Sequence record: OZ035799.1
Reading direction: 5' to 3' (one strand)
DNA length: 64,000 bases
From: Justusliebigvirus alia
Shown one piece after another: positions 14,035-28,944 of the stretch. The translations under genes and the position numbers were made by a program. The notes beneath the pieces were generated by a model that saw only the letters and a program-made list of their open reading frames with translations, was not told where the DNA came from and ran no database searches. Position 1 is the first letter of the stretch. The number at the start of each line of letters is the position of its first letter.

Positions 14035-15207
14035 ATGACAGCACCAAAATCATGGGAACAATATAAAGAAGAATTAACACCCCTTGCTAAAAATCGCAAT
14101 ATTCAAATCCTGGGTTATGTTGGTGAATGGAAAGGGAACAAGACTAAACTTAAGCTATCTTGCCCTAAACATGGAGAGTGGAACACCACGAACATTAATG
14201 ATTTTAAGAAGGGACGTGGTTGTCCTATCTGTTCTGGTAAGAAGCCGTTAACATGGGAAACAGAATTGCCGATCTTGGAAGAGATAGCACAGAAGAGGGG
14301 GTATCAGGTGTTAGGGTACGTGGGAGAATGGAAAGGGAATAAAACAAAACTTGATTTGTTGTGTCATTGTGGTAATAAATGGGATACTACAAGTATTAAC
14401 AATTTTAAACGTGGTAGCGGTTGTCCACAATGTAAGAGGGAGAGACAAACAATGTCCGACGATCAACATATTGCAGATTTCTTTTCTACAGGGGAATTTA
14501 AGGAAGGCACTATCTTCACCAATACAGGGAAACGTAACAAGCGTGATGCAGTATGGATGGTTGAGTGTCCTGTTTGCTCCCATGATGAATATGTTCAAGC
14601 AGGTGTTTGTGATGGTAAATTTTACTCTGCAGGACATAACCTTAAACAAGGGTATATTCCGTGTCGTTGTGGGAACTATCAGTATACAGAAGACCAGATC
14701 ACCTATAGGGTAAAAAAGGAAGTAGAAGGGAAAGGGTATGTCTGGGTAGATTGGATTACCAAACCCTCTTCTATAGGTAAGTTTAAATATCTTTGTCTTG
14801 TGCATGGTGATCAGATAGGGAGTGCTCGTAATTTATTAAGCCTCGGTCAAGGTTGTCCACAGTGTGCTGGTCATAATCAACAGCAATTATATATTAATAT
14901 TGTTAAAGATAATGATATTATAGTTGCTCTTAAGTTTGGTATATCTAAAGATAGCGATAGACGATTAAACGGTCAAAATAGCCGTAATCTGTTTTTTATG
15001 GAGCGTATTTGTTTATATGATTTTAGCACAGTGAAACAATGTAAGGCTGCTGAAAGAGCTATAAAGAAAAAATTAAAAACTGGTATTTTAACGGAAAGAG
15101 AGTTGAAAGACGGTTATACAGAAACAGTAAGTGTTTCTGATTTGGAAAATCTTCAAAAAATTATTACACAATATGGTGGCAAATTAGTATACAGTAAGGA
15201 GATGTAA
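14035..15207 (+). CDS. putative homing-endonuclease-like protein (tandem zinc-ribbon repeats + T5orf172/GIY-YIG-like C-terminal domain)
   Basis: Repeated LGYVGEWKGNKTKL...C..HG.W.....F..G.GCP.C modules (four Cys pairs); C-terminal ALKFGISKDSDRRLNGQN resembles the T5orf172 family motif. Confidence 0.45.
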   Translation: MTAPKSWEQYKEELTPLAKNRNIQILGYVGEWKGNKTKLKLSCPKHGEWNTTNINDFKKGRGCPICSGKKPLTWETELPILEEIAQKRGYQVLGYVGEWKGNKTKLDLLCHCGNKWDTTSINNFKRGSGCPQCKRERQTMSDDQHIADFFSTGEFKEGTIFTNTGKRNKRDAVWMVECPVCSHDEYVQAGVCDGKFYSAGHNLKQGYIPCRCGNYQYTEDQITYRVKKEVEGKGYVWVDWITKPSSIGKFKYLCLVHGDQIGSARNLLSLGQGCPQCAGHNQQQLYINIVKDNDIIVALKFGISKDSDRRLNGQNSRNLFFMERICLYDFSTVKQCKAAERAIKKKLKTGILTERELKDGYTETVSVSDLENLQKIITQYGGKLVYSKEM

Positions 15208-15759
15208 ATGCGGATTACTGATAAGTATGTGTTCTTCTTTTCAGCAAAAGATGAATTTAGCAACTGGTATCTATCATCTTTTATTGAACCTTTAGCACCC
15301 AAGTATAATAATTCTATTACAAGTTCTGTTGAATTTACTTGTGTGGAACAATATATGATGTGGAGAAAAGCATGTTTGTTTTATGATTACAGTATTGCAT
15401 CTTCTATTTTAACCGGAGATCTAAGATATACAGGAGAAAAAGAACAAGCATATTATAAACGACTAGGCAGATTAGTTAAAGATTATGATGAAGATACCTG
15501 GGCTTCTTTACGGGAGAAGATTGTCAAGCGTGGTTTGTATCTTAAATACACACAAAATGAAGATCTCAAAAATAAACTTATCGCTTACGCAGATAAGGAG
15601 TTCGTAGAGGCAAGCCCTTATGATTCTATTTATGGTATCAAAATGGGGATGTGGGATCGTGACGTGGAAAATAAGGACTGTTGGAAAGGACAAAATCTTT
15701 TAGGAAAATGGCATACAGACCTTGCTGTTTATCTAAAAGCACAATCTGATATTTCCTGA
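15208..15759 (+). CDS. NADAR (YbiA-like) domain protein
   Basis: FFFSAKDEFSNWY ... VEQYMMWRKACLF ... SPYDSIYGIKMG pattern matches NADAR family. Confidence 0.6.
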   Translation: MRITDKYVFFFSAKDEFSNWYLSSFIEPLAPKYNNSITSSVEFTCVEQYMMWRKACLFYDYSIASSILTGDLRYTGEKEQAYYKRLGRLVKDYDEDTWASLREKIVKRGLYLKYTQNEDLKNKLIAYADKEFVEASPYDSIYGIKMGMWDRDVENKDCWKGQNLLGKWHTDLAVYLKAQSDIS

Positions 15760-15974
15760 TATTTTGAAAATTTTTATTTTTATAAAAAGGGGTGTGGGTT
15801 TCATGTACGGAAATTCACCCTCTGAATAATATATCCAGAGTAAGTATTATTTTGTACTCTGTTAATAAATTATTTAATTTGTTTGTTGGAATATGTTATC
15901 TGGTTTTTAAAAGGCATACTATCTCTTAACTACTACTTATAACAGAACAGTAAAATCATTTTTATAAAAAGGAC

Positions 15975-16182
15975 AAAATTATTTAAAGTTTTTACAGATT
16001 TTTGGGTACAAATTTAGAAAATGAAAAGTTCAAGTTTGGTCAAAATTATTTAAAGTTTTTGTACGTATTTCTATCCAGATTTTGAAAATGAAAACTTCAA
16101 TTTTTTAAAAATTCCCCAGTTTATTTAAAGTTTTTTTGCCTTTTTCCGTAGAAAAATCAAAAATGAAAAGTTCAATTTCGTG
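15975..16182. repeat. three imperfect tandem repeats of about 65-75 bp
   Basis: Each unit begins (a)aaattatttaaagttttt and ends gaaaatgaaaa(g/c)ttcaa. Confidence 0.6.
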
Positions 16183-16195
16183 TTTTTATGGGTGT

Positions 16196-16295
16196 GCGTA
16201 TGATAATCATTTTCATTTGTAAATGAGAATCATTATCATTTAAGTATGTAAGTGATAATCATTCTCACTAAGAGAATGAGAATCATTAGCAAATG
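16196..16295. promoter_or_regulatory. cluster of Fur-box-like palindromes
   Basis: gtaaatgagaatcattatc and gagaatgagaatcattagc each match 16/19 of the Fur consensus GATAATGATAATCATTATC; flanked by gataatcatt half-sites. Confidence 0.35.
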
Positions 16296-16573
16296 AGAAT
16301 TTTTCTCATTTAGAGAATAACGCGCAGGGGTGGTGTTTGTCTCGCGCTCCCGTGTCCCCTCGCCATACAATAAGAATAGCATAACCAACAACAAAAGCAA
16401 GCGATTATTTTTATCTTTACATTTCTTTACAAATTTATTTTAGACGAGCTACCGGCGATCAACCTTCCAACCAGTAGTGCCCTGGTATGTTAGCCCCGCC
16501 TTTACGCCGTGGGGGTGGCGTTTCCTCTTCTGTATGTAAAACAGTATAAGCCCGATCCCTGGGCTTGTCAAGA

Positions 16574-16840
16574 TTATTTTTTGTTTTCTTGCCAGGATAG
16601 GACACCTAACCAAAAATACATGTCGCCCCGCGCCCCTGGCGGGATCTTGCTTTCCCCGCCGCCACTGCAAGCCCATAGATAACCATTTACGAACGTATCA
16701 AAGTGATCTATCTCTTCCACCTTATGATTGCCCAGGTTGAGAACGGTTTCAACCTTTAAGCCCGTTGCGCTTGCTACCTGGTGCACCGTGCCGCCTTGCC
16801 AGCCCAATGAGTGCATGAGATGTAAAGGAGTATTTGTCAT
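16574..16840 (-). CDS. hypothetical protein in GC-rich island
   Basis: 88 aa ORF (MTNTPLHLMHSLGWQGGTVHQVA...) with AAAGGG SD; sits in locally GC-rich segment unlike the rest of the window. Confidence 0.3.
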   Translation of the reverse strand: MTNTPLHLMHSLGWQGGTVHQVASATGLKVETVLNLGNHKVEEIDHFDTFVNGYLWACSGGGESKIPPGARGDMYFWLGVLSWQENKK

Positions 16841-17104
16841 GGTATCGCCCTTTCTTTGATGTGCGCCCTGGTTGGCGCGGTAGAAAGATAATAGCCGTTT
16901 CCTTTATAGATAGCAAGCAAAAAAGAAATGAAAAAAGATTAAAAAAATGGTTGACGTTCCTCACCTGGTAGCGTAGTATTCATCTTGTCGAGGGGGCGAG
17001 GCACAACGACAATAAACAAAAGGAGGGCGCAATGTAGGACGGGCAAAGGTGAGGATCTCCACAATCCACCGTCACAATAACATTACTTATAAAAGGTTGA
17101 TAAC

Positions 17105-17200
17105 GATGATCAAGAAAGAAAACAGCTTGACGGTTGGAACGATTAACGCTATCATTCTTGCCGTTCCATTTTGGGTTGTAGTAGCGGTTATTATTTTTTA
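17105..17200 (+). CDS. hypothetical small hydrophobic peptide
   Basis: 31 aa (MIKKENSLTVGTINAIILAVPFWVVVAVIIF); TTGACG-17-TAGTAT promoter-like sequence about 150 nt upstream; speculative. Confidence 0.2.
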
Positions 17201-17209
17201 AAAATATTC

Positions 17210-17267
17210 TTGACAACGTTTTTTAATCTGATAAGATGTATCACATAGGGCGGCAATAGTGCCGCTC
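17210..17267 (+). promoter_or_regulatory. promoter + 5' GC hairpin cassette
   Basis: TTGACA (17210-17215), spacer, CACATA, hairpin GGGCGGCAATAGTGCCGCTC (17248-17267), then AGAGAGA SD and ATG 17290. Confidence 0.5.
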
Positions 17268-17289
17268 ATAACAGAAGAGAGAAATAATC

Positions 17290-17562
17290 ATGGCATCATA
17301 TAGCGCATCAATGATTGTAATGGGTATCACTGGTAAACCTATGCGCGGTGGCGGATCTTTCGCTAACATCAATATTGATGGACGTTTATCCCTGGACGCA
17401 GCGATCACAGTGGCACGGGAAACGTTTAAAAAAGAATGTAATTTCAATAAACAAGATTATCTCGGCTTCGTTATTGAAAAAACCGCGCGCTTTGTTGATT
17501 ATAAAAGCCCGAAAATGATCGACACTACACTAAAGGCGCAAGATGTAGCTTTTTTGCTTTAA
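17290..17562 (+). CDS. hypothetical protein
   Basis: 90 aa ORF behind cassette. Confidence 0.5.
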   Translation: MASYSASMIVMGITGKPMRGGGSFANINIDGRLSLDAAITVARETFKKECNFNKQDYLGFVIEKTARFVDYKSPKMIDTTLKAQDVAFLL

Positions 17563-27107: not shown

Positions 27108-27123
27108 ATAACATTCCATACAA

Positions 27124-27149
27124 GGGCGCAATAAGCGCCCTTTCTTTTT
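27124..27149 (+). terminator. rho-independent terminator
   Basis: GGGCGCAATAAGCGCCC hairpin + TTTCTTTTT; closes the plus-strand small-gene array. Confidence 0.65.
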
Positions 27150-27429
27150 ACCTCAATAAAGATGATAGCTTTTACCTATCAAAAACGTTCACCGAAAAAA
27201 GTGAATAGATCGCGGTATCGAGCTAATCAAGGAGCAGATGAACAACCATACCATGAAGATCATAAGGCGCTTACAACGTGTTTTAGACCGCTTATTTTTA
27301 ATTTCTTCATGCAACTATCTGGCAAAAACAGCCTTTTTCTTGTCTTTCCTCTTAAATGATAATCATTCTTATTTATAGCTGATTATTTATGCAATAAACT
27401 GCATAATGCAATAATGATAATCATTCTTA

Positions 27430-27780
27430 ACTTATGACCATCTAACCTATAAAATAATAAGTTATCTAACTAAATTAAAACTAATTATCTTACTTTTATT
27501 TATAACTTACTGTTACTATCTCATTGATAACCTTATATTAAACAACAATAACTAATATAAATCATTACTAAGCTAAATATAATCTATCTAACCTTTAAAA
27601 CTATAACTATAATCTATTGAATTATTGCACAAAGTAACTATTAAATCGTTAGTAACATTACTAAATAATTAATATCCTATTTATTTATGATCTAATCTTT
27701 ACCTTACTATCTATTACCTAAATAATCATTTTATACCGTAATCATTTCATACAATAATTATAACAAGAAATATAATTAGC
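27430..27780. other. G-poor, extremely AT-rich noncoding tract (strand-asymmetric composition)
   Basis: Top strand almost devoid of G over about 350 bp (cta/taa-rich); no ORFs. Confidence 0.4.
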
Positions 27781-27816
27781 AAGCGTATCATTAGCAGCCT
27801 ATGCCGGACACATAGG

Positions 27817-27965
27817 CGGCTAATAATAACGCAACTACACACCCCACATAATAACCATCACCGATAGTTATTATTTGTGCTTATGTAGCTTGCAACAACT
27901 GCAAGCGCAACAATATACATGGTATATTGTATTCCCTTACATTGTTGCGGTGCGTTATTATTAGC
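27817..27965. repeat. long-range inverted repeat (15-bp perfect arms) enclosing a palindrome
   Basis: GCTAATAATAACGCA (27818-27832) and TGCGTTATTATTAGC (27950-27964); internal GCTTGCA-acaac-TGCAAGC palindrome near 27890. Confidence 0.5.
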
Positions 27966-27984
27966 TAATGTTTAGAACATTGGC

Positions 27985-28062
27985 TATAATATAAGCTATC
28001 CAATAATATAAGCTATCCAATAATAATAAGCTATACAATAATAATAAGCTATACAATAATAA
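27985..28062. repeat. iteron-like direct repeats (4 copies, 17-18 bp)
   Basis: ataagctatccaataat x2 followed by ataagctatacaataata x2 in tandem. Confidence 0.6.
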
Positions 28063-28944
28063 ACATCGTGAATAATGATGCTGATGATCATAATGCGCCA
28101 CCTTCCAGGGCGGCGCTATGTGAACACAAAGAAATCTTTCTTGTCAAGAAAAATATTAACACTATTGCGCAAAATTATTTATATATGAATAGATGGTTTT
28201 TCATACTATTGCCCCTATAACATACCTCATTTGTTGCAATGTACCTTCCTATTTGTTGAGTATAGTTATAGCCTATTTGTTGAGCCTACTTTCTTAAAAG
28301 CGCAATAAAGTAGAAATATCTTGATTTTTAGTCGGTTTTATAGTACAGAAAGTATGCAAATGATAATCATTATCAGCTATCTTCCACGGGTAGCACTATT
28401 TCACGCCAGATCATTTCATTTGGCAAGGTGTATATAGATGTTTAGACTTGCCAAGCCATTGATTTACTTAGAATTTATCTGTTTTGTTGTGAGTAGTACC
28501 TTTCTTGCTCAGAAAATAATCAAAAGTCTTATAAGTCATTGAATGATAATGCAAATGATAATTATTCTCATTGATATTTGAGGGGGACGGTCGGCAGAAA
28601 TCGGGGGGCGCTGAAAATCGCGTTAAGCACCTCTCGCAAGCGAGCAGTATTTTGCGGCAAGTTATTGATATTATTGACTTTACGCTTATGAAAAGGGGGT
28701 GTGTCGAAATAAATCGGGTATACCGGAAAATTTTTGTGGCATAGATATTTATTTGTCTATATTATGTACAAAGGGGTGTGTTAAAAATATTAGGTATATA
28801 TAGAATAATTGATAGGGAAATCCTATGCTAATCCCTCCATTAATGATGTTCCTATGTTACTGTTCTTGTAATAGATGAAAAGACGCTGTATGATGTGTGG
28901 CATGAAACGTAAACTTACAACGTAAACTTATAAAGGAGTCTGAT

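Follow-up and report, generated by a model that had tools for sequence, protein, structure and literature searches.

A conserved noncoding region of phi92-like and rV5-like phages: a candidate leftward early control unit with Fur- and CpxR-type boxes

Positions 15760–17280 of the window, by which we mean the whole stretch of 64 000 nucleotides (64 kb) from Justusliebigvirus alia analysed here (record OZ035799.1), may constitute a conserved unit for leftward early transcription and its control in phi92-like and rV5-like phages, a reading that we favour tentatively and with slightly less than even confidence. Its basis is sequence and comparison: the region has sigma-70-type promoters stacked in one direction, a conserved core that is a candidate structured RNA, a covarying hairpin, boxes of the Fur and CpxR types and a terminator zone. 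The window is part of a Justusliebigvirus genome (phi92-like, Stephanstirmvirinae). Apart from a box labelled 'non-coding', without function, on the map in the rV5 genome paper, a literature search gave no description of the region, and in the phi92 and alia records an open reading frame (ORF) of 88 amino acids (aa) on the minus strand is the sole gene annotated across it, the alia record adding two unexplained 'repeat_region' features. An earlier note on this DNA missed the organization of the region and its host-regulator boxes because it read the plus strand; the array of Fur-type boxes (16199–16310), two minus-strand promoters and the conserved RNA core are all absent from it.

On the minus strand the elements follow one another in an order that is widely kept (Table 1). 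Promoter P0 leads into the 88-aa gene, which is followed by an inverted repeat (16566–16548) lying within promoter P1; then come the RNA core, two GTAAA pentamers, promoter P2 and its hairpin; and beyond these lie five palindromes, three repeats, two hairpins (15861–15780) and two AAATATCA octamers. The order is shared by phages PVP-SE1, BIS47, Mydo, PBES02, GAP31, phiTE, nepoznato, UPEC06, Kashira and phi1_175008, and likewise by contigs from IMG/VR and metagenomes, and it is kept among phages of E. coli, Salmonella, Klebsiella, Cronobacter, Pectobacterium, Proteus and Serratia. In the relatives a small gene, P1, the RNA core, the GTAAA boxes, P2, the hairpin and Fur-like boxes are succeeded, sometimes after a strong promoter P3, by tandem repeats and a cluster of AAATATCA octamers, and in PVP-SE1, GAP31, BIS47, PBES02, phiTE, UPEC06, Kashira and nepoznato the octamers occupy the distal end of the homologous region.

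Table 1. Predicted features of the region and its edges, with positions in the window
Feature	Position	Strand	Basis or remark
Two AAATATCA octamers, 10 bp apart	15746–15764	-	Overlap the NADAR stop codon; sequence reading
Hairpin GGGGTGTGGGTTTC / GAAATTCACCCTC (15789–15822), TTATAAAAA before it	15780–15822	.	Fold
Hairpin CAGAGTA (15836–15842)...TACTCTG (15855–15861)	15836–15861	+	T-rich tail
Three imperfect tandem repeats (67, 75 bp)	15958–16178	.	22–26% GC DNA
Array of five Fur-box-like palindromes	16199–16310	.	Core TGA(T/G)AAT-N-ATT(A/C)TCA; type TGAGAATCATTATCA
Individual Fur-like boxes	16199–16217, 16222–16240, 16251–16269, 16275–16293, 16292–16310	.	Consensus match
P2 transcript start and hairpin (GGCGAGGGG...CCCCUGCGC)	16322–16366	-	Covarying outer stem; start predicted
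P2	16373–16400	-	TTGCTT (16400–16395), 16-nt spacer, TATTCT (16378–16373)
CpxR-type box GTAAAGAAATGTAAA (GTAAA-N5-GTAAA)	16416–16430	-	Exact match to CpxR-P consensus
Candidate structured RNA ('P1 RNA'), about 100 nt	16430–16536	-	Covariance model, 116.7 bits, E 5e-33
P1	16543–16571	-	TTGACA, 17-nt spacer, TATACT; 11/12
88-aa protein gene	16574–16840	-	phi92 gp224 family, phrog_19316 (E 3e-57)
P0, promoter-like, for the 88-aa gene	16888–16916	-	TTGCTA-17-TATTAT
Rightward early-promoter zone	16951–17237	+	Promoter-like sites
Promoter-like TTGACG-17-TAGTAT	16951–16979	+	Sequence scan
Promoter-like TTGACG-17-TATCAT	17127–17155	+	Sequence scan
Promoter-like TTGACA-16-TAAGAT with TG	17210–17237	+	Sequence scan

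A sensitive BLAST search with 16310–17060 as the query matched 237 phage records. The stretch 15700–17300 is 100% identical to OZ035770.1 and 96–98% identical to about 50 other coliphages, and in distant genera (Mydovirus, Certrevirus and Seunavirus, together with phages of Klebsiella, Proteus, Cronobacter, Salmonella, Pectobacterium, Raoultella and Serratia) only 16414–16540 still aligns, at 78–87% identity and mostly unannotated. By these alignments the gap is among the most conserved DNA segments common to the Stephanstirmvirinae and Vequintavirinae, and is newly recognized as such. Records named as phages of Campylobacter, Acinetobacter or Pseudomonas contain the region at 93–98% identity, which suggests mislabelled hosts or contaminating coliphages.

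The two inner promoters have the conservation pattern expected of sigma-70 promoters, with hexamers and a 16–18-nt spacing retained while the sequence of the spacer diverges. At P1 all 28 distinct relatives score 9–12 of 12, with a diverged spacer of 17–18 nt, and the promoter lies 4–9 nt ahead of the RNA start; in the window its spacer is the inverted repeat AAGCCCAGGGATCGGGCTT (16548–16566), which is also a terminator-like hairpin for the 88-aa gene. At the position of P2 the scores are 7–9 of 12 in 27 of the 28, and stronger versions (TTGCAA-17-TATATT or TTGATC-16-TATTAT) occur in relatives. A clear P3 is present downstream of the Fur boxes in PVP-SE1, GAP31, BIS47 and UPEC06, where the boxes end about 12–45 bp upstream of it. 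We rejected a plus-strand promoter overlapped by Fur boxes and running into the hairpin (TTGAAT-18-CAGAAT), which is missing the key -11 A (CTGAAT in BIS47 and Mydo, CGGAAT in phiTE) and whose -35 is lost in the window.

The core predicted to be transcribed from P1, here called P1 RNA, is nearly invariant through the Stephanstirmvirinae and Vequintavirinae. Its predicted layout is a purine-rich 5' tail, a hairpin CGCC/GGCG and a long, interrupted helix GGCGG...UCGCC enclosing a variable apical hairpin. With a covariance model that we built from 16 sequences, each phage locus yields exactly one strong copy (87–129 bits), that of the window at 16430–16533 on the minus strand; the 27–29 kb region yields none. 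In tests on 37 distinct sequences the proposed partners pair in 99.1% of cells, as against 21–55% when the partners are slid, and the covariation score was reached by no shuffle. Compensatory change is seen at pair 47–96 (AU in 22 rows, GC in 14) and pair 50–94 (CG in 35 rows, GC in one), and in the apical hairpin both length and sequence vary with pairing maintained; since the loop changes by 1, 2 or 5 nt, none a multiple of three, coding is excluded. An invariant G.U pair fits the minus strand. The suggestion in the earlier note that the GC-rich part may encode a structured RNA thus gains substance as a putatively promoter-driven element of about 100 nt with two compensatory pairs and a length-variable apical hairpin.

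An RNA family scan, which had also been proposed there, yielded no Rfam family for either P1 RNA or the P2 hairpin: with Rfam 15 at the gathering threshold there was no hit in the whole window, and at E<=10 nothing fell on 16400–16560, with only chance hits on AT-rich palindromes elsewhere in the region. ARAGORN found no tRNA or tmRNA, and likenesses seen by eye to domain IV of the signal recognition particle RNA, to tRNA-fMet (GGUAGCUCGUC), to boxA and to the anti-Shine-Dalgarno complement were set aside, being unconserved in relatives or without Rfam support. The nearest comparison is the Proteo-phage-1 RNA (RF03044), also a phage-borne candidate small RNA (sRNA) without assigned function, with which P1 RNA shares short words (ACGGAAGG; CaCCGGCAGC as against CGCCGGUAGC) and to which a divergent second copy of P1 RNA in Raoultella phage Ro1 scores 21.6 bits. 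That score lies below the gathering score of 42, however, the RNA of the window gives no hit at E<=10, and genuine examples come from GC-rich phages of 35–60 kb and do not align along their length with P1 RNA; identity of the two was rejected as a sub-threshold match through one atypical copy. In Ro1 itself (locus L022, 6283–7126, minus strand) the conserved RNA gene is interrupted after GGAUCGC by an ORF of 197 aa that has a Shine-Dalgarno sequence of its own and matches no Pfam family; behind this ORF the divergent, partial second copy supplies the 3' end and the GTAAA boxes again. A well-bounded RNA candidate absent from Rfam would be new, and about 40 examples of this one are available, with a putative promoter, defined boundaries and a covariance model.

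The predicted P2 transcript begins with a hairpin of about 45 nt that has a conserved loop, GAGACAAACACC, and an outer stem that covaries (AUAGCGGG/CCCGCUAU, AUGGCGGG/CCCGUCAU and GCGGG/CCUGU with G.U pairs); read on the other strand, these G.U pairs would be A.C mismatches. On its 3' side a weak U-tract, UUAUUCUCU, leads straight into the first Fur box; the sequence after the hairpin is UUAUUCUCU or CUAUUCUG.

Upstream of P2 the tandem GTAAA pentamers match exactly the consensus for phosphorylated CpxR (CpxR-P), GTAAA(N)4-8GTAAA (PMC9603713). The box lies 15 nt upstream of the P2 -35 hexamer (5 nt in the Vequintavirinae), is exact in 26 of 31 distinct relatives and is the sole N5 copy in the window, so that by sequence the tandem pentamer, its 4–8-nt spacing and its place upstream of a promoter are all those of a CpxR-P box. 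As at envelope-stress promoters bound by CpxR-P, the exact tandem pentamer has 5-nt spacing and lies 5–15 nt upstream of -35, a position compatible with activation; unlike those, the promoter here belongs to a phage and is predicted to make a noncoding hairpin RNA, and the box is lost in the rV5-like phage UPEC06 and degenerate in three other lineages.

The five palindromes downstream of the P2 hairpin resemble Fur boxes. We scanned with a palindromic 19-mer form (AATGATAATNATTATCATT) and a 7-1-7 core (TGATAATNATTATCA) of the Fur consensus, GATAATGATAATCATTATC as used in PMC4506495. Seven 19-mers with no more than three mismatches to AATGATAATNATTATCATT occur in the 64 kb, four at 16199–16310 and three at 27355–28572, and none lies outside the two noncoding regions; shuffles preserving local composition give about 0.6 strand-hits for 19-mers, and 0.6–3.7 per 64 kb across both motifs. 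Within 16199–16310 there are four 15-mers with 1–2 mismatches and four 19-mers with 1–3, so that at the level of sequence both the 19-bp palindrome and the 7-1-7 core are present. In nearly all relatives the first box lies 105–119 nt past the 3' end of the RNA, with further boxes at 29-nt steps; the number varies from one to five, and two phages have boxes with zero mismatches. The 19-mer register, in which TGA and TCA are 9 nt apart, accommodates every one of the 44 distinct boxes, and this spacing fits Fur and not ArgR; ARG boxes, whose half-sites are spaced by 8 nt, were excluded and spacing of that type was not seen. The lone variable symmetric position (T/G, A/C) is complementary in only 13 of the 44, which argues for DNA half-sites TGA(T/G)AAT and rules out RNA hairpins.

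Fur boxes are already familiar from temperate phages, stx1 being one example. The palindrome, its 7-1-7 core and the 9 nt from TGA to TCA are the same here as in Enterobacterales Fur operators, where boxes are likewise often multiple and adjacent. In contrast to known Fur operators, however, the arrays lie in noncoding DNA of strictly lytic phages with no iron gene downstream, they stand behind an RNA hairpin and do not clearly cover a promoter, and another noncoding region has a second set of them. Among temperate phages, boxes are found upstream of sitABCD on lambdoid coliphages (PMC6969025). Conserved Fur-box arrays together with a CpxR-type box in noncoding DNA of virulent Enterobacterales phages would be new, and a search of the literature found neither a Fur-box nor a CpxR-box report for these phages. 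A BLAST search for an E. coli source of the array returned only short, uninformative hits to small plasmids.

The second noncoding region, 27108–28944, has four Fur-box matches (27355–27373, 27410–27429, 28356–28377 and 28551–28572), including a perfect TGATAATCATTATCA at 28361–28375. The last of the four overlaps a promoter-like TTGAAT(28541)-18-TATTCT; beyond this site come a GC-rich segment and, at about 28580–28655, a terminator-like CTCGCAAGCGAG...TATTTTG, and together these make a candidate Fur-repressed small RNA. GC content reaches its minimum for the window in this region (19%), and short tandem repeats (AATAATATAAGCTATCC / AATAATAAGCTATAC) lie at 27990–28060. Klebsiella phage BIS47 (locus L020, about 1800–2910) likewise has a second Fur-like cluster about 10 kb from its first, with GTAAA-N5-GTAAA directly upstream of a TTGACG hexamer, so that the two-region arrangement of host-regulator boxes is not restricted to phi92-like phages.

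If the region is a control unit, its products would be early noncoding RNAs, P0 driving the 88-aa gene, P1 a G+C-rich RNA of about 100 nt and P2 a hairpin of about 45 nt. Fe2+-Fur bound directly behind the weak P2 hairpin would form a gate by roadblock-assisted termination or, alternatively, would repress a promoter that lies within the boxes or immediately past them. Leftward transcription would then end as short RNAs in iron-replete cells, and in iron-starved cells would continue across the repeat array to the terminator near 15780, while CpxR-P would raise P2 under envelope stress, such as that of infection. That P1 RNA barely varies among phages that infect seven host genera suggests contact with a conserved host component. 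Taken together, the arrangement suggests that a strictly lytic phage reads the physiological state of its host.

Several points weigh against such a unit. The literature search gave no transcriptome for these phages, and we know of no citable precedent for Fur as an elongation roadblock. Neither P1 RNA (z -0.31) nor the P2 hairpin (z +0.25) folds more stably than shuffles, and covariation in P1 RNA is limited to two pairs and the apical hairpin because the remainder is invariant; with 8 of the 16 pairs never varying and a fold of this stability, its identification as a structured RNA is reasonable but not proven, and the conserved core may instead act as single-stranded DNA or as a protein-binding site. 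P1 RNA has no terminator of its own, and the 3' Rho-independent terminator with a U-tail that marks Hfq-type sRNAs is not found on it; the U-tract of the P2 hairpin is poor, so that its role in termination is one we infer. No good promoter overlaps the Fur boxes of the window, where the only hexamer pairs are 9-of-12 matches inside the palindromes, and a clear P3 occurs only in some Vequintavirinae. One CpxR-type box per 64 kb is what chance would give (0.57 expected), so that only conservation argues for its function. Finally, the model leaves the tandem repeats unexplained.

Three such repeats of about 70 bp, imperfect, had been reported in the earlier note, and both Tandem Repeats Finder (15974–16104, period 67, 79% matches, score 171) and a repeat search recover them, the latter with in-register copies at 15958–16036, 16025–16103 and 16100–16178 that are 71–72% identical to the reference copy. 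Each repeat has two conserved boxes, ATTTAAAGTTTTT and GAAAATGAAAAGTTCAA (minus strand, AAAAACTTTAAATAA and TTGAAsTTTTCATTTT), of which a search of the 64 kb at low mismatch found no further copies. Relatives have three or four repeats of 67–80 bp in the same place with genus-specific sequences (types CGATCGAGAAC, CCTCTCAAGTTC and ACTTTAAAT). Conservation of number, period and place with sequence differing by genus would suit binding sites that co-evolve with a phage protein, and the pattern alone does not tell which process they may serve. No copy has hexamers and spacing acceptable for a sigma-70 promoter. ORFs annotated over the repeats (PVP-SE1 gp202, locus L003, 1149–1433; GAP31_043A, L007, 1003–1284; BIS47_205, L004, 978–1322) translate to low-complexity strings rich in F, S and R and are unlikely to be genes. 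From the same group of phages the pseudo-ToxI of phiTE is known as a tandem-repeat locus of noncoding RNA (PMC3475682), but it lies at about 99–100 kb of phiTE, whereas this region lies at 39.6 kb, and its repeats are of 36 nt and mimic ToxI, whereas those here are longer (67–75 bp), AT-rich and unrelated; the different locus and repeat unit rule out a type III antitoxin or pseudo-ToxI.

A transcription-activated replication origin, which we consider somewhat unlikely yet deserving of serious weight, would account for the repeats and the AT-rich zone better than a control unit does. The stacked promoters would send G-rich transcripts into an AT-rich unwinding zone with iteron-like repeats, where the RNA would prime synthesis or open the duplex, or else the core would be a single-stranded DNA priming signal for a conserved phage primase; the Fur and CpxR sites would make initiation there depend on the state of the host. 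Three or four promoters in the same direction, followed by direct repeats in DNA of 22–26% GC, are as expected, as are repeats that keep number and spacing while changing sequence by genus; the negative GC skew over 16300–16900, which makes the minus-strand RNA G-rich, also counts in its favour, as do the A5T6 tracts and GATC-rich boxes of Vequintavirinae units. The repeat period is, however, far longer than the 17–22 bp of classical iterons, and within 15760–17280 there is no TTATCCACA-like DnaA box at one mismatch or fewer, no adjoining gene identified as an initiator and no strand-skew switch; the second noncoding region, which is yet more AT-rich, would be an equally good candidate. Promoter-plus-AT-rich origins include the T7 primary origin, T4 oriF/oriG and ColE1 RNA II, and they too have promoters placed in tandem in one direction, a G-rich transcript and, downstream, an AT-rich zone that bears repeats; they differ in that the repeats here are of 67–80 bp and that no initiator or RNase H logic has been identified. 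The origin of rV5 itself was not located because skew analysis followed only the direction of transcription (PMC3606486).

The Fur boxes could instead act by their number, with about nine per genome copy (five here and four at 27.3–28.6 kb) absorbing host Fur during replication, so that iron uptake and RyhB are derepressed and enzymes of the phage, ribonucleotide reductase among them, are supplied with iron; infection would then amount to a natural Fur titration assay, and where the boxes stand would be secondary. A cell has a few thousand Fur molecules, and hundreds of genome copies with nine sites each would be of comparable order. The boxes are indeed arrayed in two noncoding regions and not placed singly at one promoter, a layout of two clusters recurs in BIS47, and no iron-related gene lies downstream; box number ranges from one to five among relatives with presence conserved, but several genera have only one or two in this region. 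The fixed offset of the first box behind the P2 hairpin in nearly all relatives argues for a role that depends on position, and the benefit of titration is unproven within a short lytic cycle; we regard a decoy as decidedly unlikely.

It is also conceivable, though very improbable, that P1 RNA works in cis, on the RNA polymerase that is transcribing it, much as the put sites of phage HK022 do, so that transcription from P1 resists the downstream hairpin, Fur-bound DNA and terminators, a role that would be compatible with the control unit. The RNA would begin at +1 of a strong early promoter, lacks a terminator and is almost frozen in sequence among phages with hosts whose RNA polymerase is highly conserved, and terminator-like hairpins and predicted protein-binding sites follow it in the unit. 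P1 RNA nevertheless has no similarity, in sequence or in modelled structure, to known antiterminator RNAs and no Rfam hit.

The composition of the region had been taken in the earlier note as a possible sign of horizontal acquisition. Sliding-window GC bears out the contrast: 16311–16900 has a GC content of 48.5%, where the mean for the window is 37.1% (SD 3.7%, 300-bp windows), and contains the top 300-bp (51.7%) and 600-bp (49.0%) GC windows of the 64 kb, and the left part, 15760–16310, is at 24.5% the second lowest, behind the 27–28 kb region. The GC richness is due to the RNA, the hairpins and the small gene. The segment has no match among 5,426 E. coli genomes, and a scan of 185,579 species genomes for the RNA core found no bacterial homologue, its output being three chance hits and one binned phage contig. 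Deviant composition is thus accompanied by no donor-like homologue outside the phage lineage, and the core, which is in the same place in every related phage examined and absent from bacterial genomes, would be ancestral to the phage group. That the segment is an acquired island, or a compositional artefact with no function of its own, is scarcely credible even granting its extreme GC content and a gene slot before P1 that varies by genus, since the RNA core and flanking promoters are syntenic and 78–87% identical where neighbouring genes cannot be aligned as DNA; horizontal acquisition is by these comparisons essentially excluded.

The edges of the region agree with the module boundary that had been proposed, in that a bidirectional terminator zone (15776–15861) lies at one end and a divergent early-promoter zone (16888–16979) at the other; the link suggested with the region at 27.1–28.9 kb is strengthened by the Fur-box clusters common to both and by their pairing in BIS47. 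The hairpin CAGAGTA...TACTCTG described earlier is present, with its pairing confirmed, and is a candidate terminator of the upstream plus-strand operon (NADAR). The GGGGTGTG motif (AAAAGGGGTGTG) that had been noticed at 15787 proves to be the 5' arm of the neighbouring hairpin at 15789–15822, which has A/T runs at its flanks and a folding energy of -24.1 kcal/mol on the plus strand (z -2.8; minus strand, z -2.3). On the minus strand 15780–15822 reads as a stem followed by CUUUUUAU, and is a candidate terminator, and 3' end, of the leftward unit. The 10-mer AAGGGGTGTG occurs exactly twice in the 64 kb (15787 and 28771; about 0.1 expected), with a one-mismatch copy at 28694, so that all copies lie in the two long noncoding regions.

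The 88-aa ORF that had been judged plausible is a real gene, with a phrog_19316 assignment, a family of 21 protein clusters with identity down to 40%, a conserved LMxxLGWQGGTVHQVAxATGL motif and a confident, all-helical AlphaFold2 model (pLDDT 93.8), for which there was no significant structural neighbour. The statement that the region has no convincing ORF therefore holds for 15760–16573 but not beyond, given this gene and a 31-aa hydrophobic ORF at 17106–17201 (MIKKENSLTVGTINAIILAVPFWVVVAVIIF), which is annotated in the curated BASEL phage EmilieFrey (bas61_0110) and missing from most other records. The slot before P1 is occupied by the 88-aa family, by DUF7170 (Seunavirus and Mydovirus) or by a fused 143-aa form (phiTE), and this difference between genera indicates that it exchanges genes. 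To the right, a start-stop ATGTAG (17032–17037) lies a few bases 3' of a strong AAGGAGG. The neighbouring genes encode the NADAR protein, an endonuclease-like protein and small proteins of unknown function; just upstream of the NADAR gene, a 390-aa ORF (14035–15207) has four CapR-homology repeats and a T5orf172 domain, matches a PHROG 'endonuclease' family, and is likely to be a mobile gene of the homing-endonuclease type adjoining the noncoding region.

The origin, the Fur decoy and the put-like role of P1 RNA are not mutually exclusive. In a combined form, unlikely in its entirety, the region would be a sensor locus in which Fe2+-Fur and CpxR-P, each behind one of two early RNA modules, choose between short RNAs and read-through into the repeats (as an origin or a long noncoding RNA); Fur would at the same time be titrated by some nine boxes on each genome copy as the phage DNA accumulates, and the RNA of about 100 nt would be a new class acting on a conserved host machine. 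The elements themselves are new forms of known kinds, namely a phage early control region, a Fur operator and a phage noncoding RNA, and do not make a new category.

Phages related to phi92, rV5 and PVP-SE1 are valued for their broad host range and are in use in therapy and biocontrol, and in their annotations this region is left blank or given spurious ORFs. If Fur and CpxR truly bind there, a virulent phage would tune its early transcription or replication to iron and envelope stress, which are the conditions that differ most between the flask and the infected gut or bloodstream, and the performance of these phages in therapy could be affected.

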